The translations under genes and the position numbers were made by a program. Positions 1,698 through 64,000 of a DNA stretch of 64,000 bases are shown piece after piece (position 1 is the stretch's first letter; each line of letters opens with the position of its first letter). The DNA comes from Mycobacteriales bacterium (lineage in GTDB: Bacteria > Actinomycetota > Actinomycetes > JAFAQI01). The stretch spans positions 654-64,653 of the forward strand of contig DATJWM010000039.1 in NCBI GenBank assembly GCA_035501255.1. Direction: 5' to 3'. The notes below the pieces were generated by a model. That model was given only the letters and a program-made list of their open reading frames with translations. It was not told where the DNA came from and made no database searches.

Positions 1698-2473
1698 GCA
1701 GGCTCGAGCCCGTGACGAGGACCGCGTCGAGACTCCTCGCCCCTAACCCCGGCCCAATGACTCTCGAGGGCACCAACACCTGGATCCTGAAGGATCCGGA
1801 AGGACCGAGCCGGGTCGTCGTCGACCCCGGACCGCTCGAGGACGGGCACGTCGAGGAGGTTGCTGCGCTCGGGCCGATCACGCTGATCGTGCTCACGCAC
1901 GGCCACTTCGACCATTGCGAGTCGGCACCGCTCCTGCACGAGCTCACCGGCGCTCCAGTGCTCGCGTGGGATCCCGCGTTGTGCATCGCCGCCGAACCGC
2001 TGTCGCAGACGACACAACGCAGTGCGCTCGGGGGGCTTGAGTGGCTCACGTATCTGACGCCGGGCCACAGCAGCGACTCGGTGTCGTTCCTGCTCGAGGC
2101 CGACCGGGCACTGCTCACCGGCGATACCGTGCTCGGGCGTGGCACTGCGGTGATCGCTCATCCGGATGGCGAGCTCGGCGCGTACCTCGACTCGCTGCAA
2201 CGGTTGCGAGACCTCGCCGCCACTGAGGTGGACATCGTCCTGCCGGGCCACGGGCCGGTGGTGGACCGTCCGATCGAGGTGCTCGATTACTACATCACCC
2301 ACCGGCACGAACGCCTTCAACAGGTGCGAGACGCGCTCGCCGCCGGCGCGAGCATCGATGACATCGACTCGGTCGTCGAGATCGTCTACGCCGATGTCGA
2401 CCGGTCGCTGTGGCCCTACGCCACGCTGTCGCTGCGCGCCCAGCTGGACTACCTGCGTGAGGCGGGATCGTGA
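1694..2473 (+). CDS. MBL-fold metallo-hydrolase (Rv3677c-like)
   Basis: It carries the HxHxDH motif (LTHGHFDHC). The ATGA overlap with the upstream gene and the GTGA overlap with the downstream gene indicate translational coupling. Confidence 0.85.
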   Translation: MSRLEPVTRTASRLLAPNPGPMTLEGTNTWILKDPEGPSRVVVDPGPLEDGHVEEVAALGPITLIVLTHGHFDHCESAPLLHELTGAPVLAWDPALCIAAEPLSQTTQRSALGGLEWLTYLTPGHSSDSVSFLLEADRALLTGDTVLGRGTAVIAHPDGELGAYLDSLQRLRDLAATEVDIVLPGHGPVVDRPIEVLDYYITHRHERLQQVRDALAAGASIDDIDSVVEIVYADVDRSLWPYATLSLRAQLDYLREAGS

Positions 2474-5400
2474 CGAGCGAGTCCGCGGCGGGTCCACGCA
2501 GCATGGCGATCCCCGAACCCGGTCCGATCGTCTGCCCCGTCTGCGGCACGCCCACGGTCGAGGGTGCGCGGTTCTGCTTCTCGTGCGGGGCGATGCTCGA
2601 CGCCGCTGCGATCGCCGCCGACATCAACACCGAGCGCCGGGTGGTGACGGTGTTGTTCGGCGACCTTTCCGACTTCACCGCCTGGGCGGAGGACGTCGAC
2701 CCGGAGCGGGTCGGGATCGTCACGGATCACGTCCTGGCGGTGCTTAGCGACGTCGTGAACGACTACGGCGGCACGGTCGACAAGCTCACCGGCGACGGGA
2801 TCATGGCCGTTTTCGGCGCGCCGACGGCGCACGAGAACGACCCCGAACGCGCGGTGCGCGCGGCGCACGAGATGCAAGCGGCGGTGCGTCGACTGACGAA
2901 GGAGGGCAGCCGGAGCGACCGGCTGATGGGCCTGCGGGTCGGGTTGAACACCGGGGAGGTGCTGGCGGGCATTCAGGCATCCCGGGCGTACACGGTCGTC
3001 GGCGACACGGTCAACACCGCTTCGCGGCTGTCGGACGCGGCCAGTGTCGGAGCCGTGTACGCCGGTCGAGCAACCGCGATGGCAACGATGTCGACCGCGA
3101 CCTGGCGCTCGCTGGAACCGTTGCGGTTGAAGGGAAAACGCGAACCCGTCCCTGCGTACGAGCTGGTGGGATTGCGCCCACCCGGTGCCGCGAGACTCGG
3201 CCTGGGCGAGGAGACCCCGTTCATCGGACGCGACACGGAGTTCGCTCAGCTCGCGGCCCGCCTGCTGGAGGTGGTCGAGCGGGACAAGCCAGCCTCTGTC
3301 GTCGTCACCGGCGAGGCCGGAGTGGGCAAGACCCGCCTGGTGCTCGAGCTCGCCCAGTTTGCCGGCGGCCTTCCCGACGTCCGGGTGTTGTGGGGCCGCT
3401 GCTCGCCGTACGGCGAGAGTCGGGAGCTGTCCGCGCTCGCCGAGTGGATGCGGACGGTGTTCGGAATCGTGGAAGAAGACGACACCGAGGCTGCGATTGC
3501 ACGGGTGCGGCGCACGCTGTCCCGGCTCGCGCCGCGAAGCACCGGGCGGCCGATCAACTCCTCCACGACCGACCGGCTGCTTGCGTTGCTGGGTCTGGTC
3601 GAGTGGTCGCAGGTGGGGCCTCGGGACAACGCGACTCCCGGTGCAGCGGAGTTGCTGGAGGATCCGACCGTTGAGGCGGTCGTCGCGGTCCTTGCCGCTG
3701 TGGCCGCCGAGGGTCCACTTGTGCTCGTGATCGACGATGCACACTGGGCCTCCGGTGATCTGCTGGGTGCAGTGACCCGCCTTGCCAATGAGGTGCTCGG
3801 CGCCGTGCTGTTCGTCACCGTCGGCCGGGCGGAGCTGCTCTCCGCGTCGTGGTGGGACCGGATGCCGGATGCTTCGGTGTTGCCCGTCACCCCGATGGAC
3901 GACGCAGCCAGCGGTCGATTGCTCGCCGCTTACCTCAGCGGGGCCGAGCTCGACCCAGCAACTCGCGAGCTGCTTCTCGACCGCGCGCAGGGCAACCCGT
4001 TCTTTCTGGCGGAGATGCTGCACCTGCTCGTTGATCGCGGCTTGCTGAACCGCGACGGCGAGGGCTGGCAGCTCACCGGTGACCTGCCGCGCGACGTGCT
4101 TCCCGCGGGAGTTCAGGCGGTGCTTACCGCCCGGATCGACGGCTTGTCGCCGGCGGCGCGCACCGTGCTGCGCGACGCCGCGATCATGGGGAATCGATTC
4201 ACCGCTGAGATGCTTCGGGCCCTGGCGACGACGCCGGACGACGGGACCGACCCCATTGCCGACGCGGTCGAGGAGCTGCTCGCTCGGGGGATCGTGCACG
4301 TCATTGGGGGAGGCACCGAGGCGCACCCGCACTACGCGTTCGCCCACGCTCTCATTCGCGACGTCGCCTACGCAGGGGTGCCCAAGGCCGAACGTGCGCG
4401 GCGGCACGCGCGGGTCGCGCGGTGGGCGATCGGAGGCCTGCACTGGTCGACGGGTGAGACGGATGCGTTCGTGGCCGCGCAGGCCGAACAGGCGATCTCG
4501 CTCGCCGAGGAGATGGACCTTCCGCCCCGGGACCGGGCCTGGTCGGCGCGAGTGGTCGGGTTCGGCGCGTTGAGCCGGCTGGGCGAGGCCGCGCTGGCCC
4601 GCGATGACAACACCCGCGCCGACACGTTGCTCACCCGCGCTCTCCGGATCGCCGGCGGTGAGGTGTCGGACGGTACCCAGGCGAAGGTGCTCGTCCGTCG
4701 GGCCGCGGCCCGGCTGTCGCTGCGTCGGATCGAGGAGGCCGAGGCGGACCTTGACAAGCCGCTCGCGTCGCGCGACCTCGGGACCCGGGCCTCGGCCCTC
4801 GTGGTTCGCGGGGAGATCATGCGGCGCTCGGGTGACGACACGAGGGCGGCCGAGCTGTTCGTGTCGGCGCTTGCCGCCGCGAGCGAGTCCGGCCAGGACC
4901 GAGTGACGGCGGAGGCGTTGCGCCAATTGGGGTTGTTGGCGTTCGTCGCCGGTGATCTGCGCACGGCCGACCTCCGGTTCGGTCAAGCCTTGGACCTGGC
5001 GGAGCGGATCGGCGACCGCCGCGGAGCCGGTTGGGCGCTTCAGCATCTCGCCTGGAGCGCCACCAGCCGCGGGGACTACGCCGAGGCCGAGCAGCGCCTC
5101 GCGGCCGCGTCGGACGTGTTCGCCGCGCTGGGCGACGACGGTGGGCTGTCGTGGTGCGCGGGGACGGAGGCGTTCGTCCGCCTGCTTCAGGGCCGACTGG
5201 AACAGGCCCGCGATCTCGCCCAGGGTCTGCTCCCGTTTGCGCGGAGTCTGAGCGATCGCTGGGGTGCCGCGGCGTGCCTGACGATCGATGCGCTCGCGGC
5301 CGGTGAGCTCGGACTCGTGACCACCGCACTCGAGGAGGCGGCCGCGGCGTATGAGGAGTTTCACGCGTTGTCGAACACCTGGGGGGAGAGCGTCGCCGCG

Positions 5401-6027
5401 CTCGCCGAGGGGATGGCCTTGCGGGGCGCCGGTCGAGCGCAGGAGGCGATCACCCGGCTCGAGTTCGCCGCTCAAGTAGCCAGTCGCGACGGTCACGTGC
5501 TCCAGGCGGCGGTCGCGCTCGGGTACATCGGGTACTGCCATCTTGACCTCGGCGACTCCGTCGGCGCGGAGGAGATCGCCACCCGGGCGTTGGCCTCGCT
5601 GGAAGGGATCGGCGTCCGGCCGGGTGCGCTTGTCGGGGTGCGGGTGTTGCTGGCCCAGGCGCTTCGTCAGCGCGGGGAGACCGATCGCGCCCTCACCCTC
5701 CTGCGGGAGGCGCAGGTCGTCGACGACGCGTCGCTGTCCTTTCCCCGCCGTCAGGCGCTCGCGCACCTGGCCGGCGTCCTGCTCGAGCGCGGTGACGTGG
5801 GCGAGGCGGTCGGTGTCATCCAGCAGGCGATGGCCGTCCCGGCCGAGGATCTGCGGTCGCGGATCGTGGCCTTGCGGGTTCTCGGTGCCGTGCTGTCGAG
5901 AAGCGGCGACCTGCCCGCAGCCCGCTACGCCCTGCGCCAGGCGGTGGCCCTGGCCGGTTCGACCGAGATGCAGGCGGAATTGCCCGCGTCGCGGCGAGCG
6001 CTCGACGCGCTTCCCGCTGCCTCGTAG
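2470..6027 (+). CDS. Multidomain zinc-ribbon / class III adenylate cyclase / STAND AAA ATPase / TPR protein (1185 aa)
   Basis: The N-terminus has a CPVCG...CFSCG zinc ribbon. The cyclase homology domain shows VVTVLFGDLSDFT and KLTGDGIMAVFG. A Walker A (VVVTGEAGVGKT) follows. The C-terminal half is long and Ala/Leu-rich TPR-like. No C-terminal LuxR HTH was seen. Confidence 0.85.
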   Translation: MTSESAAGPRSMAIPEPGPIVCPVCGTPTVEGARFCFSCGAMLDAAAIAADINTERRVVTVLFGDLSDFTAWAEDVDPERVGIVTDHVLAVLSDVVNDYGGTVDKLTGDGIMAVFGAPTAHENDPERAVRAAHEMQAAVRRLTKEGSRSDRLMGLRVGLNTGEVLAGIQASRAYTVVGDTVNTASRLSDAASVGAVYAGRATAMATMSTATWRSLEPLRLKGKREPVPAYELVGLRPPGAARLGLGEETPFIGRDTEFAQLAARLLEVVERDKPASVVVTGEAGVGKTRLVLELAQFAGGLPDVRVLWGRCSPYGESRELSALAEWMRTVFGIVEEDDTEAAIARVRRTLSRLAPRSTGRPINSSTTDRLLALLGLVEWSQVGPRDNATPGAAELLEDPTVEAVVAVLAAVAAEGPLVLVIDDAHWASGDLLGAVTRLANEVLGAVLFVTVGRAELLSASWWDRMPDASVLPVTPMDDAASGRLLAAYLSGAELDPATRELLLDRAQGNPFFLAEMLHLLVDRGLLNRDGEGWQLTGDLPRDVLPAGVQAVLTARIDGLSPAARTVLRDAAIMGNRFTAEMLRALATTPDDGTDPIADAVEELLARGIVHVIGGGTEAHPHYAFAHALIRDVAYAGVPKAERARRHARVARWAIGGLHWSTGETDAFVAAQAEQAISLAEEMDLPPRDRAWSARVVGFGALSRLGEAALARDDNTRADTLLTRALRIAGGEVSDGTQAKVLVRRAAARLSLRRIEEAEADLDKPLASRDLGTRASALVVRGEIMRRSGDDTRAAELFVSALAAASESGQDRVTAEALRQLGLLAFVAGDLRTADLRFGQALDLAERIGDRRGAGWALQHLAWSATSRGDYAEAEQRLAAASDVFAALGDDGGLSWCAGTEAFVRLLQGRLEQARDLAQGLLPFARSLSDRWGAAACLTIDALAAGELGLVTTALEEAAAAYEEFHALSNTWGESVAALAEGMALRGAGRAQEAITRLEFAAQVASRDGHVLQAAVALGYIGYCHLDLGDSVGAEEIATRALASLEGIGVRPGALVGVRVLLAQALRQRGETDRALTLLREAQVVDDASLSFPRRQALAHLAGVLLERGDVGEAVGVIQQAMAVPAEDLRSRIVALRVLGAVLSRSGDLPAARYALRQAVALAGSTEMQAELPASRRALDALPAAS

Positions 6028-6030
6028 CGG

Positions 6031-6705
6031 TTACCGCGCGCGGCGCGCGAGTCGCTCGGGTTCGAGGAGTACGACGCTGCGACCCTCGGTTCGCAGCCAG
6101 CCCCGGTGTGCGAACTCCGACAGCGCCTTGTTGACGGTCTCGCGGCTCGCGCCGACGAGTTGGGCGAGCTCCTCTTGGGTCAGGTCGTGGCGCACCCGGG
6201 TGCCGTCGCCCTCCGGCACGCCGAAGCGCTCCGCCAGGTCGAGGAGCGCCTTGGCCACCCGCCCGGGTACGTCGGTGAAGACGAGGTCGGCCATCGCCTC
6301 GTTCGTCCGCCGCAGCCGGAGGGCGAGGGCCTGGAGTAGGTGAACCGCGACTCCTGGGCGCTCGATGAGCAGCGGCCGGAGGTCGTCGTGGTCCAGCGAG
6401 GCCAGGACGGATTCCGTCACGGTCGTCACGGTCGCGGTCCGCGCTCCTGGGTCGAACAGCGAGAGCTCGCCGAACATCTCGGTCGCACCGAGAACCGCCA
6501 GCAAGTTTTCTCGACCGTCGGAGGCGGCCCGCGAAATCTTGACCTTGCCCTCGAGCACGACGAACAGGCGATCGCCGGTATCTCCTTCCCGGAACACCAC
6601 GTGCCCGCGCGCCAGGGTTCGCCGGGTCATGGCCGCTTCAAGGGAGGCCGCCGACTCCTCGTCCAGGGCAGCGAACAGCGGCGACTGAGCGAGCACACCC
6701 TCCAC
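6031..6705 (-). CDS. crp: cAMP receptor protein (Crp/Fnr family global regulator)
   Basis: Near-colinear identity to Mtb Crp Rv3676 (GDRLFVVLEGKVKI...RETVNKALSEFAHRGWLR...ERLARRAR). GTG start with a GGAGG Shine-Dalgarno. Confidence 0.95.
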   Translation of the reverse strand: MEGVLAQSPLFAALDEESAASLEAAMTRRTLARGHVVFREGDTGDRLFVVLEGKVKISRAASDGRENLLAVLGATEMFGELSLFDPGARTATVTTVTESVLASLDHDDLRPLLIERPGVAVHLLQALALRLRRTNEAMADLVFTDVPGRVAKALLDLAERFGVPEGDGTRVRHDLTQEELAQLVGASRETVNKALSEFAHRGWLRTEGRSVVLLEPERLARRAR

Positions 6706-6777
6706 GACGGCCTCCGACCCGAGATCGTGTCTGCGAGTCTGCCCTACCCGCCTGTCCGGGAACCGCTATGGGGCGGG

Positions 6778-7308
6778 TCAGCGTCGCACGGCGTTGGGCG
6801 GGTTCGACCGGTTCGGCAGTGCCGACAAGCACAGGTCCGGGTCCTCCCGGTAGCGCGCGATGAGCTCGGCGGTCGCGGTCGCGAGCCGGCGGTGCAACGC
6901 GGCCCGGTACGCCGACAGTTGGCTCTCGGCCTTGATCAGATCGTGGATCAACGCGGCGTTGAAGGTGTGGTCACCCTTGACCGGCTCATTCGCCCACAGC
7001 GAGGCGAGGTCGGGCAGTGGCGGCATGTCGTCGACCGGCAGGACGCTGAGCAGCGCCGATCGGCCGCTGCCCATCCGGCCCTCGGCGAAGACATCACGCA
7101 GGTCCTCGACACTCGCGCTCTGACCGCTGTCGGTGGCTCGGACGAGGTCGAGGCGTGCCTGAATGATCCGTCGCCAGTACGACACCCGGCCCTCTTCGCT
7201 GGTGAGGGTGGTGCGGTAGCTGCGCAGCCCATCGAGGGACAGATGGGCGAAGTCAGGGCTGCGCTCAGGCGGGACCGTCAGTCGGTCCGCCGTCGGCCGG
7301 TTGGGCAT
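6778..7308 (-). CDS. Helical hypothetical protein; candidate RsiG-like c-di-GMP-binding anti-sigma factor
   Basis: ATG at 7308 is preceded by GGAGA (alternative GTG at 7314). It contains an exact E(X)3S(X)2R(X)3Q(X)3D match (EGRVSYWRRIIQARLD). A degenerate second copy (ESQLSAYRAALHRRLA) lies about 96 aa downstream. Confidence 0.55.
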   Translation of the reverse strand: MPNRPTADRLTVPPERSPDFAHLSLDGLRSYRTTLTSEEGRVSYWRRIIQARLDLVRATDSGQSASVEDLRDVFAEGRMGSGRSALLSVLPVDDMPPLPDLASLWANEPVKGDHTFNAALIHDLIKAESQLSAYRAALHRRLATATAELIARYREDPDLCLSALPNRSNPPNAVRR

Positions 7309-7426
7309 GATCACTCTCCGCTGCTGTTACTCGCGGATCGGCCGCGATTCCGGGCTGCTTGAGGTGAACGGGCCGCCCGTCACCCCTATGGACTAGGCAT
7401 CAGACACCCGCCGTACGCTCGGTGAT

Positions 7427-8143
7427 GTGGCGCCACCCGAATCTCGTACGGCCCTGGTGCGTCGGGCGAGACGGATGGACCGCATCCTCACCGAGACCTA
7501 TCCGGACGCACATTGCGAGCTGGATTTCTCCTCACCGCTGCAGCTCCTGGTCGCCACCGTGCTCTCCGCGCAGTGCACGGACAAGAAGGTCAACGAGGTC
7601 ACACCGGCGCTTTTCCGTCGTTATCCCGACGCTGCCGCCCTCGCGGGCGCGGATCGCGTCGAGATGGAGAACATGATCCGTCCGACCGGGTTCTTTCGCG
7701 CAAAGACCACGAGCCTGATCAACCTCGGACAGGCGCTGACGGAACGGTTCGGCGGCGAGGTCCCCGGCACGCTCAACCAGCTCGTCACCCTCCCCGGAGT
7801 GGGCCGTAAGACCGCGAACGTTGTGCTTGGCAACGCGTTCGGTATCCCGGGTATCACCGTCGACACACATTTCGGTCGGCTCGCCCGCAGATTCGGCTGG
7901 ACGGCGCAAGATGACCCCGTCAAGGTCGAGCACGAGGTGGGATCGCTGTTCGACAAGCGGGTCTGGACCGGGCTGTCGCATCGGATGATCTGGCACGGGC
8001 GGCGCGTGTGTCACTCGCGGAAACCGGCCTGCGGCGCCTGCCCGCTCGCCAGGTTGTGCCCGTCGTACGGGCTTGGTCCGACCGATCCCGTGCTCGCGAC
8101 CAAGCTGTTGAAGCCGGCCTCGCAGATGGCCGCGACGCGATGA
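7427..8143 (+). CDS. nth: Endonuclease III
   Basis: HhH-GPD fold ([12 protein letters not shown]) and a C-terminal FeS cluster motif ([17 protein letters not shown]). Confidence 0.95.
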
Positions 8144-13732: not shown

Positions 13733-14833
13733 ATGGCTGGTTCGAGACGAATCCTGTTCGTCTGCGGCCGGGTCGAGGCCCGGTCCGCGATGATCCGGCT
13801 GGCGGCCCTCGCCGGGGCGGAGCTCGACGTCACCACTGAGGTGGACGGCCTGCAGGCCGCCTGGCGGAGTGCCGCGGTCGTGGTCGTCGGCAGCGATCTG
13901 GCTGCGGCCGTTGCCGTCACCGAGCCGCCGCGCCGCGAGGGTGTCATCGTTGTGGCCGACGATGCCGAGTCGGCCGAGGTCTGGCAGCTCGCGGTCGCAC
14001 TCGGCGCAGCCGGGGTCTACCAACTGCCACGCGACCAACACGCTGTCCTCGACGTGGTTGGCGCCACGCTCGACGGGCCGATCGAGGCGGCGCCGATCAT
14101 CGCCGTGATCGGCGGGTGCGGTGGTGCGGGTGCCTCCACGCTCGCGGCGGCACTCGCGCTGACCAGTGCCCGAGCACGGCCGACGGTGCTGGTCGACGCC
14201 GACCGCTACGGCGGGGGAATCGACGTCCTGCTCGGCGCTGAGCAATGTGAAGGTGCGCGCTGGCCGGAGTTGTCCGGCGCGCGTGGCCACCTTGAGGCGC
14301 AGGCCTTTGCCAATGCGCTGCCACGAGTCGGGAGCCTCGCCGTGCTCTCCCAGGATCGTGGTCATCCGCAGCCCGAGATCGACCTGGAAACCGCCGACGC
14401 GGTCGCTGCTGCCGTTCGCCGCGCCTTCGCCGCCGTCGTCGTCGACCTGCCACGCCACGGTGACCCGGTCGCGTCGCTGTTCGTGGCGCGGGCTGAGGCG
14501 GTGCTTCTCGTCGTCCCGGCCACCGTCCGCGCAGCTGCGGCCGCCGCGGCAGTAGCGGCATCCGTCGTCGCGCAGGGTGGGGTGCCGTCGCTTGTGGTGC
14601 GCGACGCCGGTCCGCAGCGGCTCGGGGTCGAGGAGATCGCGAGCGTGCTGGGGCATCCGGTCGGCGCGATCCTGCGCAGCGAGTCATGGGTGATGACGGC
14701 CGCCGAGCGCGCAGAGTTGCCGGTTCGGCGGGGGCGAGGGTCGCTGGCGGACGCCTGCGGGTCCCTGCTCGCCTCCTATATCGGCGCCCGCGAGATGACG
14801 ACCGGTGAGCGGGAATGGGCGGAGGCGGGATGA
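13733..14833 (+). CDS. ssd: Septum-site-determining protein Ssd / TadZ(CpaE)-like ParA-family ATPase of the Tad locus
   Basis: It has a degenerate deviant Walker A (IGGCGGAGAST) and matches the Rv3660c position and architecture. Confidence 0.8.
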   Translation: MAGSRRILFVCGRVEARSAMIRLAALAGAELDVTTEVDGLQAAWRSAAVVVVGSDLAAAVAVTEPPRREGVIVVADDAESAEVWQLAVALGAAGVYQLPRDQHAVLDVVGATLDGPIEAAPIIAVIGGCGGAGASTLAAALALTSARARPTVLVDADRYGGGIDVLLGAEQCEGARWPELSGARGHLEAQAFANALPRVGSLAVLSQDRGHPQPEIDLETADAVAAAVRRAFAAVVVDLPRHGDPVASLFVARAEAVLLVVPATVRAAAAAAAVAASVVAQGGVPSLVVRDAGPQRLGVEEIASVLGHPVGAILRSESWVMTAAERAELPVRRGRGSLADACGSLLASYIGAREMTTGEREWAEAG

Positions 14834-15984
14834 CGATGGACGACCTCCTGCTCGACCGGGTACGCCGACGGTTGCTCGAGCGGCCGGGCGGGCTCACCGA
14901 GGCCTCGGTCGCGGCCGCGCTTCGCGAGGAAGCGCCGGTCGCCGGTGCGGGTCAGCTGCTCGACGTCGCCGGCGACCTGATGTCCGAGATTGCCGGTGCC
15001 GGCCCGCTCGAGCCGTTGCTCGCCCTGCCCGGAGTCACCGACGTGCTGGTGAACGGCGCCGGTCCGGTCTGGGTGGATCGTGGCCGCGGCCTTCAGGCCA
15101 CCCCGGTCGCGATCGAGGACGAAGCGGGGGCAAGACGGCTGGCCGTCCGCCTGGTTGCGGCCGGCGGGAGACGCCTGGATGATGCGTCTCCCTACGCCGA
15201 CGCCCGGCTCGCCGACGGGACTCGGGTGCATGCCGTCCTTCCCCCGCTCGCACCGGCAGGCACGTGCCTGTCGCTGCGGGTCCCCCCGCGGACCACCTTC
15301 ACCCTCGACGATTTGGTGGCGGCCGGGTCGGTGCCACGCGAGGGGGCCGATCTGCTGGCGGCGCTGATTGCGTCCCGAGTCGCTTTTCTCGTCACCGGCG
15401 GCACGGGTTCGGGCAAGACGACCGTGCTCTCGACGCTGCTGTCCCTCGTCGACCGCGATGAGCGGGTGCTCCTGGTTGAGGACGCGGCCGAGCTTCGGCC
15501 CGATCTGCCGCATGTTGTCCGGCTCGAGGCCCGGTCGGCGAACGCCGAGGGCGTGGGGGCGATCTCGCTCGACGTCCTGGTGCGTCAGGCGCTGCGGATG
15601 CGCCCGGACCGGCTGGTCGTCGGCGAGGTTCGCGGCGGTGAGGTGCTCGATCTGTTGGCCGCCCTCAACACCGGTCACGACGGCGGATCGGGCACCGTGC
15701 ACGCGAACCGTGCTCACCACCTCCCCGCGCGGATCGAGGCGCTCTGCGGTCAGGCCGGGTTCCCTCGGGAGGCCGCGCACAGCCTGCTGCTGGCCGCCGT
15801 CGACGCCGTCGTGCACCTGCACCGAGCGCGGGACGGGCGACGCGGGGTCGCCGGGATCGGCGTCCTCGCCGCGGGACCAGACGGTCTCGCCCGGGTGATC
15901 CCGGCCTACACCTTCGGTGCGGGTTCGGTGCGCCCGGAGCCGGGCGCCAGCCTGCTCGACGACCGACTTCGGCGCTCGCCGTGA
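14830..15984 (+). CDS. tadA: Tad pilus secretion ATPase TadA/CpaF (type II/IV secretion NTPase)
   Basis: Walker A (VTGGTGSGKTT) with Asp box and His box. ATG at 14830 overlaps the ssd stop; an alternative ATG lies at 14815. Confidence 0.85.
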   Translation: MTMDDLLLDRVRRRLLERPGGLTEASVAAALREEAPVAGAGQLLDVAGDLMSEIAGAGPLEPLLALPGVTDVLVNGAGPVWVDRGRGLQATPVAIEDEAGARRLAVRLVAAGGRRLDDASPYADARLADGTRVHAVLPPLAPAGTCLSLRVPPRTTFTLDDLVAAGSVPREGADLLAALIASRVAFLVTGGTGSGKTTVLSTLLSLVDRDERVLLVEDAAELRPDLPHVVRLEARSANAEGVGAISLDVLVRQALRMRPDRLVVGEVRGGEVLDLLAALNTGHDGGSGTVHANRAHHLPARIEALCGQAGFPREAAHSLLLAAVDAVVHLHRARDGRRGVAGIGVLAAGPDGLARVIPAYTFGAGSVRPEPGASLLDDRLRRSP

Positions 15985-21015: not shown

Positions 21016-21177
21016 CAGGTTGGGGCCGATCGTCAAATCTGGGCGGCTCACTGTTGAAGAGTCTGCCAGCGGGGTAGGACTCGAGCCGGCAAGCAGAGCC
21101 GGAGCACTAACCCGCGGGGGGATGGTTGGATGGCGTGGCAACGGGGCGCGACCCGCAATCGGCCGTTGGAGGAACGT

Positions 21178-21519
21178 GTGGATCTGAGCTTGTCGACCAG
21201 GTCGGAAGGCGACCGGACCGTCGTTGCGGTCGGGGGCGAGATCGACGTGTACACGGCGCCGAAGCTTCGAGAACACCTCATTGACCTGGTCTCGGGCGGT
21301 GCGCATCACATCATCGTGGACATGGAGCGGGTTGATTTTCTGGACTCCACCGGGCTCGGCGTCCTCGTGGGCGCGTTGAAGCGGGTTCGCTCCGAGGACG
21401 GCTCGCTGGACCTGGTGTGCACCCAGGACCGGATCCTGAAGATCTTCCGCATCACCGGGCTGACCAAGGTGTTCCCGATCCACGCGTCGGTTGACGAGGC
21501 TCTTGCCGCGGCAGACTGA
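21178..21519 (+). CDS. bldG: Anti-sigma-factor antagonist (STAS domain), BldG orthologue
   Basis: GTG at 21178 with a GGAGGA Shine-Dalgarno. Near-identical over its full length to Streptomyces BldG ([21 protein letters not shown]...[17 protein letters not shown]). Confidence 0.9.
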
Positions 21520-21528
21520 CCCGGTTCC

Positions 21529-21990
21529 ATGGCCGTCATCGAGGTGAGCTTCTCGGCGTTGCCCGCGCACGTGCGGACGGCGCGGTTGGTCGCGCTCGCC
21601 GTCGCTCGCCGGGCCGGCGTCCCCGAGGACACGCTCGAGGAAGTGCGCCTTGCGGTCGGAGAGGCCTGCTCCCGGGCGGTCGGCCTGCACGTCGCGCACG
21701 CTCCGCAGGCGCCGGTGTCGATGCAGATCCTCGATGGGAACCACGCGTTCGCGGTCGAAGTGAGCGACGTCGGGCCGCTCGAAGACGATGATCCCGAGGT
21801 CATGCTGGCCGCGCTCGATCTCGACGCGGTCACCTCGGCGATCGGAACCGGGGACTACCTCGAAGGCGTCCCGCCCGGGTTCGGGCTCGCCGTCATCGGT
21901 GGCCTGGTCGAGGACGTCGAGATCCGCCGGGATGCCTCGCGAACGTGCGTGCGGATGACCTGGCCGGTGGACCAGAACCCGGTGGGTTGA
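21529..21990 (+). CDS. Anti-sigma regulatory factor (HATPase_c Ser/Thr kinase), ApgA/RsbW-like
   Basis: Immediately downstream of bldG, as in Streptomyces (SCO3548). 153 aa with an RsbW-like GHKL fold signature. Confidence 0.75.
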   Translation: MAVIEVSFSALPAHVRTARLVALAVARRAGVPEDTLEEVRLAVGEACSRAVGLHVAHAPQAPVSMQILDGNHAFAVEVSDVGPLEDDDPEVMLAALDLDAVTSAIGTGDYLEGVPPGFGLAVIGGLVEDVEIRRDASRTCVRMTWPVDQNPVG

Positions 21991-28070: not shown

Positions 28071-30146
28071 GTGCGCGAGCTCAGCGAGATCGCGACCTCG
28101 CCCCCGGAGCAGAGCGAGGTTCGGTCGGTCCTTGCGATCAAGCCGTTCCGCCGGCTGTGGATCTCCCTCTCGCTGTCCAGCTTGGGCGACTGGTTGGGCT
28201 TCCTCGCGACGACGGCGCTCGCCACTGAACTGACCACGTCCTACTCCCACAAGCTCTATGCCGTGGCCGGCGTCCTGTTCGTGCGGCTGCTTCCCGCGGT
28301 CGTCATCGGTCCGGTCGCCGGCGCGTTCGCCGACCGGTTCAACCGGCGGACGACGATGGTGTTCACCGACGTGCTGCGTTTCGGGCTGGTGTTGTCGATC
28401 CCGTTGTTCCCCCACCTGTGGTGGCTGCTGGTCGCGTCCTTCCTGGTCGAGTGCAACAGCCTGTTCTGGATCCCGGCCAAGGAGGCCTCGATCCCGAATC
28501 TGGTGCCGCGGCACCTGCTCGAGTCGGCCAACCAGCTCAACCTCGTGACGACGTACGGATTCGGCGCAGTTGCCGCGTTGGTGTTCTCGGCGCTGGCCTT
28601 CCTCAATCGCGCACTCGCGCACGACGTGTCTTTCTTCCGCACCAATCCGGTCAACCTCGCGCTCTACATCGACGCGCTGACCTTCCTGATCTCCGCGTTG
28701 ACGATCGTGAACCTCACCCAGATCGCCGGCCCGCGACCGAACGGCACGGCGGCGCTCGAGTCGGGGGACCAGGTCGGGTTGTTCACCTCGATCACCGAAG
28801 GCTTGCGCTTCGTCGGTGGCCAACGCTGGCTCAAGGGTTTGGTGATCGGCGTTTGTGGCGCGACCGGTGCGGGTGCCGCCGTGATCGGGCTGTCACAGCG
28901 TTTCGCCAGCGACCTCAACGGTGGCAATGCGGCGTACGGCACGTTGTTCGGCACCGTGTTCGTCGGGCTTGCGGCCGGGATGTTCCTCGGACCGCGCCTC
29001 GCGGGCGGGTTCTCTCGCCGGCGACTCGTTGGCCTCGGGATCATCGCCTGCGGGCTAACGCTCGCGATCGAGTCCGTCGTACCGAACCTCGCGCTTGCGA
29101 TCCTGACGACCGCGGTCATGGGGTTTTGGGCCGGCCTGGTCTGGGTCGTCGCGCTGACCCTCGTCGGCTCCGAGGTGTCCGACGAGCTGCGCGGACGGAC
29201 GTTCGCGTTCATCTACAACCTGATGCGAATCGTGTTGCTGACCATGGTGGTGGCCGCTCCGGCGGTGGCCGGCGCGATCGGTCCGCACGAGCTCACCGTG
29301 GCCGACTCGCAGGTTCGCCTCGACGGCATCACCTTGACGTTGTTCGGCTTCGGCGTACTCGCGATGGTGCTCGGTTCGATCTGCTACCGGCTGATGGACG
29401 ACCGTCCGGACGTGTCGTTGTGGGCTGACCTCACCGCGGCCGCGCGCCGCAACCGACCGCAGCTCGGTCGTGGGACGACGGCGGGGCTGTTCATCGCGTT
29501 CGAAGGCGGTGAGGGCGCAGGCAAGTCGACCCAGGTCCGACGTCTCGCGGGTGTGGTGCGAGCGCTCGGCCATGAGGTTGTGGTGACTTTCGAACCCGGC
29601 GCGACGGCGATCGGCGCGCGGTTGCGGGACGTCCTGCTCGACCGGGAGAACGCCCAGATCACTGCGCTTGCGGAGGCGCTGCTCTACGCCGCAGACCGGG
29701 CCCAGCACGTCGCGACCGTGATCCGCCCGGCGATCGAACGCGGAGCGGTAGTGATCACGGACCGCTACGTGGACTCCACCGTCGCCTATCAGTCCGGTGG
29801 GCGTGGCCTACCCGAGCGTGACATCCGCCGGATCTCCGCGCTTGCCACGGGTGGCCTTCGGCCCGATCTGACGATCCTGCTCGACGTTCCGCCCTCGCTG
29901 GGGCTGCAGCGACTTACCGGCCCGGGCGACCGGATCGAGACCGAAGAGATCGAGTTCCACCAGCGGGTACGGCGTAGCTTCCGCAGCCTCGCGAACCAGC
30001 GGCGCGGTCGCTACCTGGTCATCGATGCGACCGCGAGCGTGGACCATATCCACGAGGTGGTCGTCGCGCGGGCGTTGCAGCTGATCCTGTCCGCGGACCT
30101 CGCGGACGATGCGTCCGCACGTTCGCTCGCGAAGGCCACGTCATGA
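28071..30146 (+). CDS. tmk: Polytopic MFS-like membrane domain fused to thymidylate kinase (SCO3542-type fusion)
   Basis: About 470 aa with roughly 12 TM helices. These run without stop or restart codon into a canonical Tmk (GLFIAFEGGEGAGKST...DRYVDSTVAYQ). Confidence 0.85.
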   Translation: MRELSEIATSPPEQSEVRSVLAIKPFRRLWISLSLSSLGDWLGFLATTALATELTTSYSHKLYAVAGVLFVRLLPAVVIGPVAGAFADRFNRRTTMVFTDVLRFGLVLSIPLFPHLWWLLVASFLVECNSLFWIPAKEASIPNLVPRHLLESANQLNLVTTYGFGAVAALVFSALAFLNRALAHDVSFFRTNPVNLALYIDALTFLISALTIVNLTQIAGPRPNGTAALESGDQVGLFTSITEGLRFVGGQRWLKGLVIGVCGATGAGAAVIGLSQRFASDLNGGNAAYGTLFGTVFVGLAAGMFLGPRLAGGFSRRRLVGLGIIACGLTLAIESVVPNLALAILTTAVMGFWAGLVWVVALTLVGSEVSDELRGRTFAFIYNLMRIVLLTMVVAAPAVAGAIGPHELTVADSQVRLDGITLTLFGFGVLAMVLGSICYRLMDDRPDVSLWADLTAAARRNRPQLGRGTTAGLFIAFEGGEGAGKSTQVRRLAGVVRALGHEVVVTFEPGATAIGARLRDVLLDRENAQITALAEALLYAADRAQHVATVIRPAIERGAVVITDRYVDSTVAYQSGGRGLPERDIRRISALATGGLRPDLTILLDVPPSLGLQRLTGPGDRIETEEIEFHQRVRRSFRSLANQRRGRYLVIDATASVDHIHEVVVARALQLILSADLADDASARSLAKATS

Positions 30147-34890: not shown

Positions 34891-35298
34891 TCAGCCGCCG
34901 GATCGTCCCCGCAACGTCTTGACGCCCCGGTAGACGCCGTACCCGATTCCGGTGGATGCGAGTGCGCCGACGGTGAGGAAGGCCACGGACAGGCCTGGCC
35001 GGGCCCCGCTGACCGCTCCGCGGGCGGGCACTGCGGCCCGCTCGCGCACCCCGCGCGGGCGGGCCCGCGCGAGCAACTCGTCGAGCAGACCGTCCGGCGG
35101 CTCGGGCGGCTGATCGCGCAGCGCGGTCAGGGCATCGGCGAGTTGCTGCTGGCGGTCGCGCTCGGCGGTGCACCCTGCGCAGTGCCGAAGATGAGCGCGC
35201 ACGACGTGCAGCGACCATCCGGTCAGCTCGCCGTCGACCAGGGCCGGCAGTTGGGAACGGGTCTCGCGGCAAAACCGCGGCAGGTCCTCCTCGCTCAT
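34891..35298 (-). CDS. Membrane-anchored zinc-binding (ZAS/zf-HC2) anti-sigma factor
   Basis: HLRHCAGC motif plus a C-terminal TM helix. Translationally coupled to the upstream ECF sigma factor gene. Confidence 0.7.
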   Translation of the reverse strand: MSEEDLPRFCRETRSQLPALVDGELTGWSLHVVRAHLRHCAGCTAERDRQQQLADALTALRDQPPEPPDGLLDELLARARPRGVRERAAVPARGAVSGARPGLSVAFLTVGALASTGIGYGVYRGVKTLRGRSGG

Positions 35299-35870
35299 GC
35301 GGGTTCGCCGATCGCGGTGTCTGCGTCGCCGAGCACCAACGTGCGAAGACGGGCATGTGCCCGATGCAACCGCACCTTGACCACGCTTTCGGACACTCCG
35401 AGCAGGTCGGCCACCTCCTTCGTGGACAGGCCCTCAAGGTCTCGTAACACGACCACCGCCCGGGCGTCTTCCGCCAGCGTGGCGAGCGCAGCCTCGGAAC
35501 GTGCGGCCAGGTCGGACGTCGCCGCGATCTCATCCGGAAGCGGGCCGCTCGAGGCCAGCTCGGACGCTTCCCCGGGAAGACCGAAGGCGGTGCGACCGGC
35601 GGCCATCCCGGTCTCCCGCGCTCGGGAGCGCTTGCGCAGGACCGTGAGGCACACGTTCACCGTGATCCGGTGCAACCAGGTGCCGAAGGCTGCCTCGCCA
35701 CGGAAGCCGATGACCGAGCGCATCACCCGCACGAACACCTCCTGGGTCGCGTCGGCGGCTTCGTCGGGGTCGGCGAGCATCCGGCGGCACAACGCGTAGA
35801 CGTCGGCGTAGGTCGCGCGGATCAGCGCGTCCAGCGCGTCGGGCTCACCGCGTTGGCACGCCCGCACCAA
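35295..35870 (-). CDS. ECF-type RNA polymerase sigma-70 factor
   Basis: Sigma70 region 2 (FRGEAAFGTWLHRITVNVCL) and region 4 (EGLSTKEVADLLGVSESVVKVRLHRA). TTG/GTG start. Confidence 0.85.
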   Translation of the reverse strand: MVRACQRGEPDALDALIRATYADVYALCRRMLADPDEAADATQEVFVRVMRSVIGFRGEAAFGTWLHRITVNVCLTVLRKRSRARETGMAAGRTAFGLPGEASELASSGPLPDEIAATSDLAARSEAALATLAEDARAVVVLRDLEGLSTKEVADLLGVSESVVKVRLHRAHARLRTLVLGDADTAIGEPA

Positions 35871-36035
35871 CGCCGGGTCGACGTCGATATCAGACCTCCC
35901 TCACGCCGGTTCGGTTACCGGGATCGCCCCTGGTGGATCGACCCGGGAAAAACTGGTCTGTAACCAAGGCTGCGCCGCGGAGTCAAAACAGGTGACGCGG
36001 CGCGCCGATGTGCCGCAGACAGGGAGAAAAGTCCG

Positions 36036-36347
36036 ATGTACGCATTCGTCGTGTTCGTGGGTCTTGCGCTCGCGCTCGCCGTCGTCGGTGAGGTGCTCGA
36101 CGAGGTGCTGCCCGTGAAGGCACCCAGGGCGCTGACCACCACGCTCGCGGTCGGGGTCGCGATCCTCGTCTCGTGGGCACTCGACTACTCGGTGTTCCAG
36201 GCGTTCGGCCAGACACTGCGCGCCCAGTGGATGAACCCGGTCGCGACCGGCGTCGTTCTGGTTGGTGCCGGCGAAGCGATCCGGGCGATCCTCAACAACC
36301 TGGGCCTGACCCTCTCGATCGGGACGAACCGGTCCAAGACGGCGTAG
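36036..36347 (+). CDS. Small hypothetical membrane protein (103 aa, 3 TM)
   Basis: ATG with a GGGAGA Shine-Dalgarno. Hydrophobic helices. Followed by a strong hairpin. Confidence 0.6.
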   Translation: MYAFVVFVGLALALAVVGEVLDEVLPVKAPRALTTTLAVGVAILVSWALDYSVFQAFGQTLRAQWMNPVATGVVLVGAGEAIRAILNNLGLTLSIGTNRSKTA

Positions 36348-61748: not shown

Positions 61749-61870
61749 CCTCTCGGCCGGAACGGACCCCCGCGAACCGGGCCAATTCCGAATCGGATCG
61801 GGCCAAACGGCCGCATTCCTGGCGCGTTCGCATCCTTAAGCAAACGGGTGAACGCGACGACATGTCCTAG

Positions 61871-63043
61871 GTGAGCGCCCAGCCGGAGAGTGCGTCTCCG
61901 GTCACCGTCGTCGTTGTTGACGACTCGGCAACGCAGCGACGGTTCATCCGGGGCGCCGTTGCCGCCGATCCCATGCTCGAAGTCGTCGGCGAGGCTCGGA
62001 CCGGCCGGGACGCGATCGCCCTCGTCGAACGGCACCGGCCGACCGTCGTGCTCATGGACCTTCACCTGCCCGTGATGAACGGCATCCAGGCGATCGAGCG
62101 GATCATGGCGCTGCGGCCCACCCCGATCGTGGTCTACTCCTCGTTTGTCGACGGTGAGGATCGCGCGAACGCGGAATCGGCCTACGCTGCCGGCGCCGTC
62201 GATGTCATGGCGAAGCCGGGAACGAACGACAGCGGACGACTCGAGGAGTACGCCGAGGCGTTACGGCAGCGGCTGCGGGTCGCGGGCCGCGTCCGGGTGA
62301 TCACCCACCCGCGCGGGCGCCTCGGCGGCTCGAGTTCATCCCTGACGACGATGCGCCTCGGCATGGTCGCTCAGATGCCCGCGACTACCGGCTCGACCGT
62401 GACCTGCGAACCCAGCGCCGAGCTAATCGCGAGCCTGGAGGCGCGCGAGGTGAAGCTGCTCGCCATCGGCGCGTCGACCGGCGGGCCGCAAGCGCTCGCC
62501 GCCGTCCTCGCCGGGCTTCCTGAACGCACGACCATCCCCATCCTCGTGGTCCAGCACATGGCGGACGGCTTCATGGAGGGCCTCGCGGAGTGGCTGAATG
62601 ACGTGTGCCCACTTCCGGTTGCGCTGGCCGTCGACGGCCGCAGGCTGGTGCCGGGCACCGTCGCGCTCGCCCCGAGCGGCCAGAACCTCATCGTTCACGA
62701 CCGCTACCGGGTCACGATGCGCGAACCCGACCCGGGCCAATACCACGTGCCCGGGATCGACACGACGTTCACCTCCGTGGCCGACGCCTACCGTTCCACC
62801 TCGGTCGGCGTGCTGCTCACCGGAATGGGTCGCGATGGTGCGGCCGGCCTCAAACGGATCCGCGACGAAGGCGGACTGACGATCGGCCAGGACGAGTCGA
62901 CGAGCACGGTCTACGGCATGCCCGCTGCGGCCATGTCCGCCGACGCCGTTGACATCCAGCTGCCCTTGCCGGAGATCTGTACGGCGATCCACCACCTGCT
63001 CGCCACCTCGCCGCCGGTGGACCCGAGCGGAGCCGCACCATGA
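61871..63043 (+). CDS. cheB: Chemotaxis response regulator protein-glutamate methylesterase
   Basis: N-terminal REC domain (VVDDS...DLHLPVMNG) plus a CheB methylesterase domain (GASTGGPQA). GTG start. Confidence 0.9.
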   Translation: MSAQPESASPVTVVVVDDSATQRRFIRGAVAADPMLEVVGEARTGRDAIALVERHRPTVVLMDLHLPVMNGIQAIERIMALRPTPIVVYSSFVDGEDRANAESAYAAGAVDVMAKPGTNDSGRLEEYAEALRQRLRVAGRVRVITHPRGRLGGSSSSLTTMRLGMVAQMPATTGSTVTCEPSAELIASLEAREVKLLAIGASTGGPQALAAVLAGLPERTTIPILVVQHMADGFMEGLAEWLNDVCPLPVALAVDGRRLVPGTVALAPSGQNLIVHDRYRVTMREPDPGQYHVPGIDTTFTSVADAYRSTSVGVLLTGMGRDGAAGLKRIRDEGGLTIGQDESTSTVYGMPAAAMSADAVDIQLPLPEICTAIHHLLATSPPVDPSGAAP

Positions 63044-64000
63044 AGCGGATCGCGCTCACGGACCACGAGTTCGCGACGGTCGCGAGCCTGCTGCACGACG
63101 CCGCCGGACTGACCTTCGACGACTCCCGCCGGGACTCGCTGGGCTACTCGATCGGTGAGCGGATGGCCGCGCACAAGATCCCGGACGTCAAGTCCTACCT
63201 CGAGATGCTCCTGGGGTCGGGCGGTGACTCGGAGCGCCAGGCGCTCCTCGACGAGGTCACGATCCCGGAGACCCACTTCTTCCGGAACCCGCCTCAGGTG
63301 CGGGCGCTTCGCAAGCACGTACTGCCCGAGCTCCTCCGCCAAGCCTCCCAGTCCAAGCGGCTTCGGATCTGGAGTGCAGGGTGCTCGACCGGCGAGGAGG
63401 CGTACACCGTCGCGATCCTGGTCCGCGAACTGCTGCCACAGAGTGTCGATTGGGATGTGAAGATCGTCGCGACCGACGTCTCGACCCGCGCGCTCACCGC
63501 CGCGGGCAACGCGCACTACGGCGAGCGGGCGTTCGTCATGACCGAGCCGCTCGATCTTGCCCGCTGGTTTGTGCTCGACACGACCACCGGATCGTGGGTG
63601 GTGCGGGACGAGGTGCGCAGCCTGGTCGAGTTCCAGCATCACAACCTGGTGACCGATCCGCCGCCGTTCGACGACGAGCAGGTGGACCTGATCCTGTGCC
63701 GCAACGTCACGATCTACTTCGACCGGGAGACCACCCGCCGGCTCATGATGCGCCTGCACAGTCGGCTCCGCGACGGTGGATACCTCTTCCTCGGTCACGC
63801 CGAGACGTTGTGGCAGATCAGCGACGACTTCTCGCTGGTTTCCCTCGGCGACGCGTTTGTGTACCGGCGGCTCGACCAGCGAACGGAGCCCGACAGCGAG
63901 CCGGCGTACCGACGGGTGTTGCCGGACCGGCGTACCGAGGACGAGCCTCGCCCGACCCGAGCGGATCGGCGGCGTGGCTACAACGACCGGCGCGGACGGG
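63040..64000 (+). CDS. cheR: Chemotaxis protein methyltransferase CheR (3' end beyond window)
   Basis: ATGA overlap with cheB. CheR N-terminal helical domain plus SAM-binding motifs (IWSAGCSTGEE, ILCRNVTIYF). There is no stop before position 64000. Confidence 0.85.
   Translation, partial: MKRIALTDHEFATVASLLHDAAGLTFDDSRRDSLGYSIGERMAAHKIPDVKSYLEMLLGSGGDSERQALLDEVTIPETHFFRNPPQVRALRKHVLPELLRQASQSKRLRIWSAGCSTGEEAYTVAILVRELLPQSVDWDVKIVATDVSTRALTAAGNAHYGERAFVMTEPLDLARWFVLDTTTGSWVVRDEVRSLVEFQHHNLVTDPPPFDDEQVDLILCRNVTIYFDRETTRRLMMRLHSRLRDGGYLFLGHAETLWQISDDFSLVSLGDAFVYRRLDQRTEPDSEPAYRRVLPDRRTEDEPRPTRADRRRGYNDRRGR

Follow-up and report, generated by a model that had tools for sequence, protein, structure and literature searches.

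Within a 64,000-nucleotide stretch of DNA from an uncultured Mycobacteriales bacterium (contig DATJWM010000039.1, positions 654 to 64,653), hereafter the window, a 176-codon gene directly upstream of crp encodes a member of the RsiG family of anti-sigma factors, here called the RsiG-like protein. To our knowledge, RsiG is the only known case in which cyclic di-GMP (c-di-GMP) controls a sigma factor, and as far as we know the targets of RsiG control outside Streptomyces and Rubrobacter are largely prediction. We propose, with a probability of about 75%, that the RsiG-like protein is a monomeric, twin-helix anti-sigma factor of a WhiG2-type sigma factor, that it is armed by c-di-GMP through an asymmetric ligand site, and that its gene is read from an autoregulatory promoter. 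In this mechanism helices 25–61 and 114–155 would pair as an antiparallel coiled coil, each presenting one copy of the c-di-GMP signature. At high c-di-GMP levels a c-di-GMP dimer would lodge between the helices, and the protein would clamp a WhiG2-type sigma-28 factor, presumably encoded elsewhere in the genome beside rpsB-tsf, and deny it access to RNA polymerase. A fall in c-di-GMP would release the sigma factor, and the free sigma factor would raise the output of its own inhibitor via a WhiG/sigma-28-type promoter, giving a negative feedback like that of FliA and FlgM. The evidence for this proposal consists of homology, motif conservation, a two-helix model, a conserved promoter, a gene order that is kept in relatives and the joint presence of an orthologue and a WhiG in a related metagenome-assembled genome (MAG), each directly observed.

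Homology and fold of the RsiG-like protein

The Pfam family RsiG (PF22802) matched the protein in two stretches, with E=4.1e-17 and a score of 62.1 bits against a cut-off of 27 bits. When the single sequence was compared with the PDB by phmmer, chain 6pfj_T, which is Streptomyces venezuelae RsiG deposited as AmfC, was matched over the whole length (E=1e-5), and the single-motif RsiGs of Rubrobacter were also matched, over helix 1. An alignment of 49 diverse family members, reaching down to 34% identity and called A1 below, was used as a profile. It matched four distinct PDB sequences, all of them RsiG and nothing else, with E-values from 5.6e-18 to 8e-10: 6pfj_T was matched at 5.6e-18 over profile positions 11–167, and the three sequences of Rubrobacter RsiG at between about 5e-10 and 8e-10. 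An earlier note, made on this DNA from its letters alone, had suggested a relationship to RsiG, and these profile comparisons give it the form of a significant, full-length homology. NCBIfam contains no model for the protein or its family.

An AlphaFold2 model built on A1, with a predicted local distance difference test score (pLDDT) of 86.6 and a predicted template modelling score (pTM) of 0.76, has two long helices, 25–61 and 114–155, each carrying one motif, and a loop of lower confidence at 62–113. In a Foldseek search of the PDB the best three matches to this model were the RsiG chains 6pfv_T, 6pfv_E and 6pfj_T, from the RsiG-WhiG-c-di-GMP complex, with probabilities of 0.96–1.00 and template modelling (TM) scores of 0.42–0.55. 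The helices probably pack into an antiparallel coiled coil. In the alignments each column of motif 2 falls on its counterpart in EQQISRRRHHLQRTAD, the alpha5 motif of S. venezuelae RsiG, and with one motif per helix the likeness to the two-helix arrangement of Streptomyces RsiG seen in the earlier note stands. The note's hint of a single-motif variant finds no support, both helices being in one chain, as in the twin-helix monomer architecture. Judged by its sequence and predicted structure, the RsiG-like protein is a true RsiG homologue of twin-helix architecture and not of the short single-motif type. It is thus a new member of a known family, and as a kind, an RsiG anti-sigma factor, it is fairly ordinary.

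The two c-di-GMP motifs

The gene starts with the ATG at 7308, 5 nt upstream of which is a GGAGAG ribosome-binding site; CGGAGAGTG, at this site, is invariant across 22 aligned orthologous upstream regions. An alternative GTG start at 7314 is unlikely because MPNRP is the N-terminus of all close orthologues. Helix 1 carries EGRVSYWRRIIQARLD at residues 39–54, which fits the published signature E(X)3S(X)2R(X)3Q(X)3D at every position, as the earlier note had claimed, and a six-frame search of the whole window for the pattern E...S..R...Q...D found it as the sole match. The signature in its broader form, E(X)3S(X)2R(X)3[Q/H](X)3D, is therefore intact on the first coiled-coil helix, and its five positions are invariant in A1. 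On helix 2, ESQLSAYRAALHRRLA (residues 128–143) retains E, S and R, with Q replaced by H and D by A; there is no second intact copy of the broader signature on this helix, where four of the five residues are present and A143 occupies the Asp position. The partly degenerate second copy described in the note is therefore present with the residues it listed, but motif 2 starts 89 residues after motif 1, not about 96; in S. venezuelae RsiG the distance is 98. The count of His as a degeneracy was likewise not borne out. The RsiG of Conexibacter woesei, with His at the Gln position, binds c-di-GMP with a Kd of about 25 uM (PMC8325347), so that His here is a documented functional variant and the D-to-A change is the sole departure of motif 2 from the published motif.

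Residues R29, E39, S43, Y44, W45, R46, R47, Q50, D54, E128, S132, R135, L149 and R152 were invariant among the 49 sequences of A1, and H139 was at least 90% conserved. The ligand-site residues are the most constrained part of the protein, since the invariant columns are essentially E39, S43, Y44, W45, R46, R47, Q50, D54, E128, S132 and R135. The Q and D of motif 1 were kept in all 120 close homologues. In S. venezuelae RsiG the motif Glu contacts the riboses, the Ser positions the Glu and Arg, the Arg reads the central guanines, the Gln stacks on the flipped terminal guanines and the Asp recognises the terminal guanines by their Watson-Crick faces (PMC7005675). Two further residues are shared with that protein: Y44, the Tyr that follows the motif Ser, is the counterpart of RsiG Tyr69, whose stacking partner is Tyr58 of WhiG, and R83, which is nearly invariant, aligns with the loop residue Arg115, which stacks on c-di-GMP (PMC7005675). 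With these residues in place, the RsiG-like protein would be expected to bind WhiG as well as c-di-GMP.

The motif is short, and a chance occurrence in an unrelated helical protein was considered on that ground. Nothing further speaks for such an accident, to which we assign a negligible probability: the window has one match in six frames, the homology to RsiG is significant over the full length, and hundreds of relatives have the motif residues without change. The Pfam RsiG match, the conservation in A1 and the PDB matches of the A1 profile together refute it.

A predicted WhiG-type promoter upstream of the gene

A genome scan gave 49 related loci, from MAGs of Frankiales, Frankiaceae and 'Mycobacteriales', from one isolate, Acidothermaceae bacterium B102, and from Motilibacteraceae and Nanopelagicales. 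Upstream of the rsiG-like gene, about 55 nt before the start codon, lies a predicted sigma-28/WhiG-type promoter, CTCAAGCA-N13-GCCGATCC, which has the usual TCAA-N16-GCCGA spacing. In the 22 aligned orthologous regions the T, A and A of the -35 box were invariant and its C, G and C at least 90% conserved; G-C-G-A of the -10 box was invariant, and the spacer between the boxes varied in sequence while keeping a constant length. A position weight matrix (PWM) was built from the aligned orthologous upstream sites. At a score of at least 22 it found one site in the window, this one (7363–7335), against 0 expected from shuffles, and at a score of at least 17 it found 33 sites in 1.68 Mb of related loci, 28 of them at the upstream position of the rsiG-like gene. 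A relaxed pattern, T[CTA]AA-N15-17-N[ACT]CGA[TC], was present at the expected place in 43 of the 49 loci, against 0.015 expected per site, and in 22 of the 28 loci that were outside the training set of the matrix. The Nanopelagicales promoter is near-canonical, TAAA-N16-nCCGATAG. The site in the window fits both the published WhiG2 consensus, T(A/C)AA-N16-GCCGATAA (PMC12871210), and the N16 spacing that is typical of WhiG targets (PMC7005675). A scan of 5900–7600 for sigma-70 consensus sites found nothing, Rfam gave no family match in or around the locus, and the PWM found no second strong WhiG-type promoter in the window, including the Tad locus, which the earlier note had named, along with the chemotaxis genes, as a plausible regulon target.

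A WhiG-type promoter upstream of an anti-sigma gene implies a FlgM-like negative feedback, which is not seen in Streptomyces. The WhiG regulon of S. venezuelae consists of whiH, whiI and vnz15005 only (PMC7005675), whereas the gene described here has a WhiG-type promoter of its own; in the literature searched, neither rsiG as a WhiG target nor a linkage to crp is described. Use of the promoter by WhiG, and with it the feedback, we infer from the form and conservation of the site. The arrangement resembles that of FlgM, the anti-sigma-28 factor of flagellated bacteria, in that the anti-sigma gene would be read from a promoter of the sigma factor that is inhibited. Unlike what is proposed for the RsiG-like protein, FlgM is released by flagellar secretion and not by a fall in c-di-GMP, and the two proteins have no relationship in sequence or fold; no homology to FlgM was found in Pfam, even at E-values up to 1. 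A WhiG-type promoter on the anti-sigma gene, kept in lineages that range from Nanopelagicales to Frankiales-like ones, would make the switch self-limiting. The lineage-specific consensus, CTCAAGCA-N13-GCCGATGC (TCAA-N16-GCCGA), is usable to predict WhiG regulons.

Three other sites were noted during these scans. The sequence TTAAGCAAACGGGTGAACGCGACGACAT at 61836–61863 (plus strand) is a weak sigma-28-like candidate; its -35 box is also found, letter for letter, at some of the sites upstream of rsiG-like genes, and the CGA core is retained in its -10 box. The cheB GTG at 61871 follows 8 nt after its end. Its score with the strict matrix is low, and it may serve a leaderless che operon as a WhiG-type promoter. 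A second weak WhiG-type promoter candidate, TCAA-N17-GCCGATGT, is found at 35983–36011 (plus strand), 25 nt upstream of a 103-aa open reading frame (ORF) at 36036–36347, whose product is hydrophobic at the N-terminus and matches no Pfam family; the ORF is divergent from an extracytoplasmic function (ECF) sigma gene at 35295–35870. Finally, the 22 orthologous regions share a conserved block, TAGGCCGTAGGGGTGAYG (7377–7400 in the window), placed some 17 nt upstream of the -35 box and with GTGA invariant; it could belong to the divergent nth gene as its promoter or be bound by a regulator.

The probable partner sigma factor

The WhiG probe used in searches for the sigma gene was validated against WhiG chain 6pfj_A (5e-170), and a metagenome scan with it gave 80 whiG loci. 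A search with one of these, L085, found near-identical proteins named WhiG by NCBI in Frankiales, Frankiaceae and Mycobacteriales MAGs, and WhiG-named proteins are common in the MAGs of Frankiaceae and Mycobacteriales. Tetranucleotide similarity did not discriminate which of the metagenomic whiG loci belong to the lineage, and the choice of L085 is borne out only by the source names and by a match in one MAG, DASSEX01. In that MAG a WhiG (P0345) is encoded on DASSEX010000027.1 and an rsiG-like locus (L009) on DASSEX010000030.1. The L009 protein is 69% identical to that of the window, and its locus has the same synteny and the same promoter.

P0345 is in turn 69% identical to S. venezuelae WhiG, and its gene has the rpsB-tsf neighbourhood of the Streptomyces orthologue, in the order dprA-xerC-whiG-M23 peptidase-rpsB-tsf-pyrH-frr. 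The contact residues of WhiG, listed from PMC12871210 and PMC7005675, are identical in P0345 at eight of eight positions: K57, G61 and R62, which contact c-di-GMP, and T235, L236, Y239, E240 and L242, which contact RsiG. Such contact residues define the RsiG-regulated WhiG2 clade (PMC12871210). Because P0345 and L009 share one MAG, a WhiG partner is present in the lineage, and one is presumably present in the exact source genome of the window as well.

Among the whiG loci, three from Frankiaceae and Frankiales MAGs (L132, L133 and L135) have an ORF of 384–402 aa with no Pfam match directly 3' of whiG, which is absent at that place in L130 and L131. Two lake metagenome contigs of 57% G+C (L095 and L096) encode WhiG homologues that are 69% identical to S. 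venezuelae WhiG at a much lower G+C content. They are compatible with freshwater actinobacteria such as Nanopelagicales, which carry an rsiG-like gene with the canonical TAAA-N16-CCGATAG promoter.

The lost aspartate and other points against the proposal

Several points weigh against a c-di-GMP-armed anti-sigma factor of WhiG2. The first concerns the ligand site. In S. venezuelae RsiG, Asp79 and Asp177 specify the base, and the quadruple mutant R71A/D79A/R169A/D177A loses c-di-GMP binding (PMC7005675). In the RsiG-like protein A143 replaces the equivalent of Asp177, the published mutant being a quadruple one and not this single change. In the 120 closest homologues the last position of motif 2 was A in 98, S in 16, G in 5, Q in 1 and D in none. 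In the wider family Asp was found there in 65 of 100 two-motif representatives; it is the majority state and was therefore lost in the Frankiales-like branch that holds the window. The second point is distance: the identity to characterised RsiGs is 25–29% only, and the Foldseek E-values were weak (9e-3), as is usual for coiled coils. Further, S. venezuelae RsiG scored about equally, at no more than 51 bits, against all members of the clade, and with the low identity this means that the clade could be a paralogous branch; Acidothermus cellulolyticus is reported to have two RsiG copies (PMC8325347). As to the partner, no gene like whiG was detected by tblastn with the WhiG probe, either in the window or up to 10 kb from the 49 related loci, so the sigma gene is not linked to the rsiG-like gene. 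Lastly, the -35 box also fits the CTCA consensus of WhiG1 (PMC12871210), so the user of the promoter could be a flagellar-type WhiG1 rather than WhiG2.

Taken as a group, the nth-crp-linked proteins are, on sequence comparison, a distinct branch of the RsiG family, and a branch of this sort might be a diverged RsiG paralogue with a changed ligand response. Such a protein might bind WhiG without c-di-GMP, or bind a single c-di-GMP or bind it weakly, or accept another dinucleotide at the relaxed end. Its case lies in the Asp that is missing from every one of the close homologues and retained by 65% of the representatives, in a drift among A, S and G that looks unconstrained, and in the near-equal distance of the clade from S. 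venezuelae RsiG. In addition, the published survey found the alpha5 motif strictly conserved and H variants in alpha1 only (PMC8325347, PMC7005675), the opposite of the pattern in this clade. We nevertheless think a paralogue of this kind unlikely. Throughout the family motif 1 is invariant at all its positions and motif 2 at its E, S, R and H, which is hard to explain unless the pocket is used. In the complex from Rubrobacter the dimer of c-di-GMP is held asymmetrically (PMC8325347), so that asymmetric anchoring is tolerated, and the three residues with which WhiG contacts c-di-GMP are retained in the WhiG of the related MAG. With the c-di-GMP-armed anti-sigma factor as the preferred reading, ligand binding would be retained but asymmetric or weaker. 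The dinucleotide is probably held asymmetrically because the helix 2 site is without the Asp by which one terminal guanine is read at its Watson-Crick face. The natural D-to-A/S/G series at this one base-reading position could show how much of the twin motif ligand sensing needs.

Gene order and relation to crp

The order nth (divergently transcribed), rsiG-like gene, crp was found in 49 of 49 related loci, with the nudix and marP genes past nth. In all of these the rsiG-like gene is directly upstream of crp on the same strand, in most of them a gene for an adenylate cyclase-AAA_16-TPR protein adjoins crp, and no terminator-like site was found between the rsiG-like gene and crp. From this arrangement it might be supposed that the protein works with a cyclic AMP (cAMP) module, consisting of Crp and the adenylate cyclase-STAND protein, and not with a sigma factor, the RsiG-like coiled coil having been reused for another partner. 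The adjacency is of little weight, however, because the nth-crp-nudix-marP block is a conserved gene order in the related loci. The rsiG-crp spacer contains a conserved -10-like GGCAGACT box, and some close relatives (L137, L138 and L139) have an inserted gene, for a 146-aa protein of the glyoxalase family, in the gap between the rsiG-like gene and crp, so crp probably has its own promoter. Given also that the promoter of the rsiG-like gene is of the sigma-28 type and that conservation is highest at the c-di-GMP residues and at the WhiG-contacting Tyr, we regard a role in the cAMP module in place of sigma control as very unlikely. An rsiG-crp operon was downgraded as a candidate in view of the crp box and the inserted gene. 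Functional coupling of the proposed anti-sigma factor to the cAMP module is no more than a possibility.

Two observations were made on the crp side of the locus. A -10-like box, (TAGG)GCAGACT, in 6706–6777 and in related spacers often lies about 7 nt before the crp GTG start, which suggests that the crp mRNA is leaderless in several relatives. At 2470–6027 (plus strand) and convergent with crp there is a gene for an 1185-aa protein with a zinc ribbon, an adenylate cyclase catalytic domain, an AAA_16 STAND NTPase and TPR repeats. This cyclase-STAND gene is kept beside crp in most related loci, and its product and Crp make up a local cAMP module.

Distribution of the family

More than 2,000 homologues at 90% clustering have the same Pfam domain; at 50% clustering there are 400 representatives, and nearly all are metagenomic. 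Cluster look-ups of ten representatives gave metagenomic or MAG sources only, and did not place the cultured taxa Geodermatophilus, Pseudonocardiaceae and Acidothermus (Acel_1994) in the clade. A homologue search with a further member, P0152, likewise gave uncultured Mycobacteriales and Frankiales MAGs only. With this locus a clear relative of RsiG is placed among soil and freshwater actinobacteria that are abundant and uncultured. Most homologues are labelled 'hypothetical protein', and three (P0035, P0410 and P0515) bear the Joint Genome Institute (JGI) label 'anti-sigma-K factor RsiG', apparently a naming mix-up.

A broader proposition can be put forward tentatively, and we hold it to be rather doubtful: that the clade is a large, uncharacterised RsiG subfamily, abundant in uncultured Frankiales-like bacteria, Acidothermaceae, Motilibacteraceae and Nanopelagicales, which differs in kind from the Streptomyces paradigm. 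The difference would lie in a direct WhiG-dependent negative feedback and, in the Frankiales-like branch, in the absence of one guanine-reading Asp, with which the branch may sense c-di-GMP at an altered stoichiometry, affinity or base specificity; the place upstream of crp might couple c-di-GMP/WhiG to cAMP/Crp signalling.

Comparison with known RsiG systems

The RsiG of S. venezuelae and S. coelicolor (AmfC; vnz_19430 and SCO4184; PDB 6pfj and 6pfv) is a twin-motif, monomeric anti-sigma factor of WhiG. The RsiG-like protein resembles it in aligning over the full length, in having two long signature-bearing helices, in the loop Arg and the Tyr described above, and in size, with 176 aa here and a crystallised chain of 176 residues there. 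The partner found in the related MAG is, further, an orthologue of the Streptomyces WhiG. The RsiG-like protein is unlike the Streptomyces one in its low identity and in the His and Ala of motif 2, and its gene is located between nth and crp and not at the amfC position. The host, moreover, is not a sporulating streptomycete; it is a Frankiales-like actinobacterium, uncultured, whose DNA carries genes for a Tad pilus and for chemotaxis.

The single-motif, homodimeric RsiGs of Rubrobacter radiotolerans and Thermoleophilia (PDB 7lq2–7lq4) have a homologous helix 1 and motif and likewise come from hosts other than streptomycetes, in which the predicted role of WhiG is the control of pili and not of sporulation. 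Asymmetric anchoring of c-di-GMP would be common to both, being predicted here. Those proteins, of about 85–118 aa, are without the second helix and must dimerise. In the RsiG-like protein the monomeric twin-helix mode is expected because both helices are in one chain. The closest experimentally tested RsiG by taxonomy, compared here by description only, is that of Geodermatophilus obscurus (Gobs_4624), which binds WhiG2 and not WhiG1 in a two-hybrid assay (PMC12871210). Like the host of the window, G. obscurus is an actinobacterium outside Streptomyces, and its genome also encodes functions in chemotaxis and motility.

Features of the window

The features discussed are collected in Table 1. 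The neighbours were as the earlier note had given them: a crp gene with both expected domains, Tad genes, and CheB/CheR.

Table 1. Location of the rsiG-like gene, its predicted elements and its neighbours in the window
Feature	Position	Strand	Basis or remark
rsiG-like gene, 176 aa, predicted twin-helix RsiG-family anti-sigma factor	6778..7308	-	ORF list, Pfam, PDB, AlphaFold2 model
c-di-GMP motif 2, helix 2, ESQLSAYRAALHRRLA: E128 S132 R135 H139 A143	6880..6927	-	base-reading Asp replaced by Ala
c-di-GMP motif 1, helix 1, EGRVSYWRRIIQARLD: E39 S43 R46 Q50 D54	7147..7194	-	exact match to published signature
Ribosome-binding site GGAGAGTG	7312..7319	-	5 nt upstream of ATG 7308
Sigma-28/WhiG-type promoter (predicted)	7335..7363	-	-35 CTCAAGCA (7363..7356), N13, -10 GCCGATCC (7342..7335)
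crp, cAMP receptor protein gene	6031..6705	-	Pfam cNMP_binding and HTH_Crp_2; 72 nt downstream of the rsiG-like gene, same strand
nth, endonuclease III gene	7427..8143	+	Pfam HhH-GPD and HHH; divergent, 118-nt intergenic region shared with the rsiG-like promoter
Tad locus (TadA)	14815..15984		position is that of TadA; the locus also encodes two T2SSF proteins and one TadE-like protein
CheB/CheR	61871..64000

Two other loci of the window were noted. A STAS-domain protein followed by an HATPase_c_2 anti-sigma kinase, an RsbV/RsbW-like pair, is encoded at 21130–21990 (plus strand), directly upstream of a gene for an H+-pyrophosphatase. At 28071–30146 (plus strand) a 691-aa ORF joins a transporter of the major facilitator superfamily (MFS_3/MFS_1) to a C-terminal thymidylate kinase domain.

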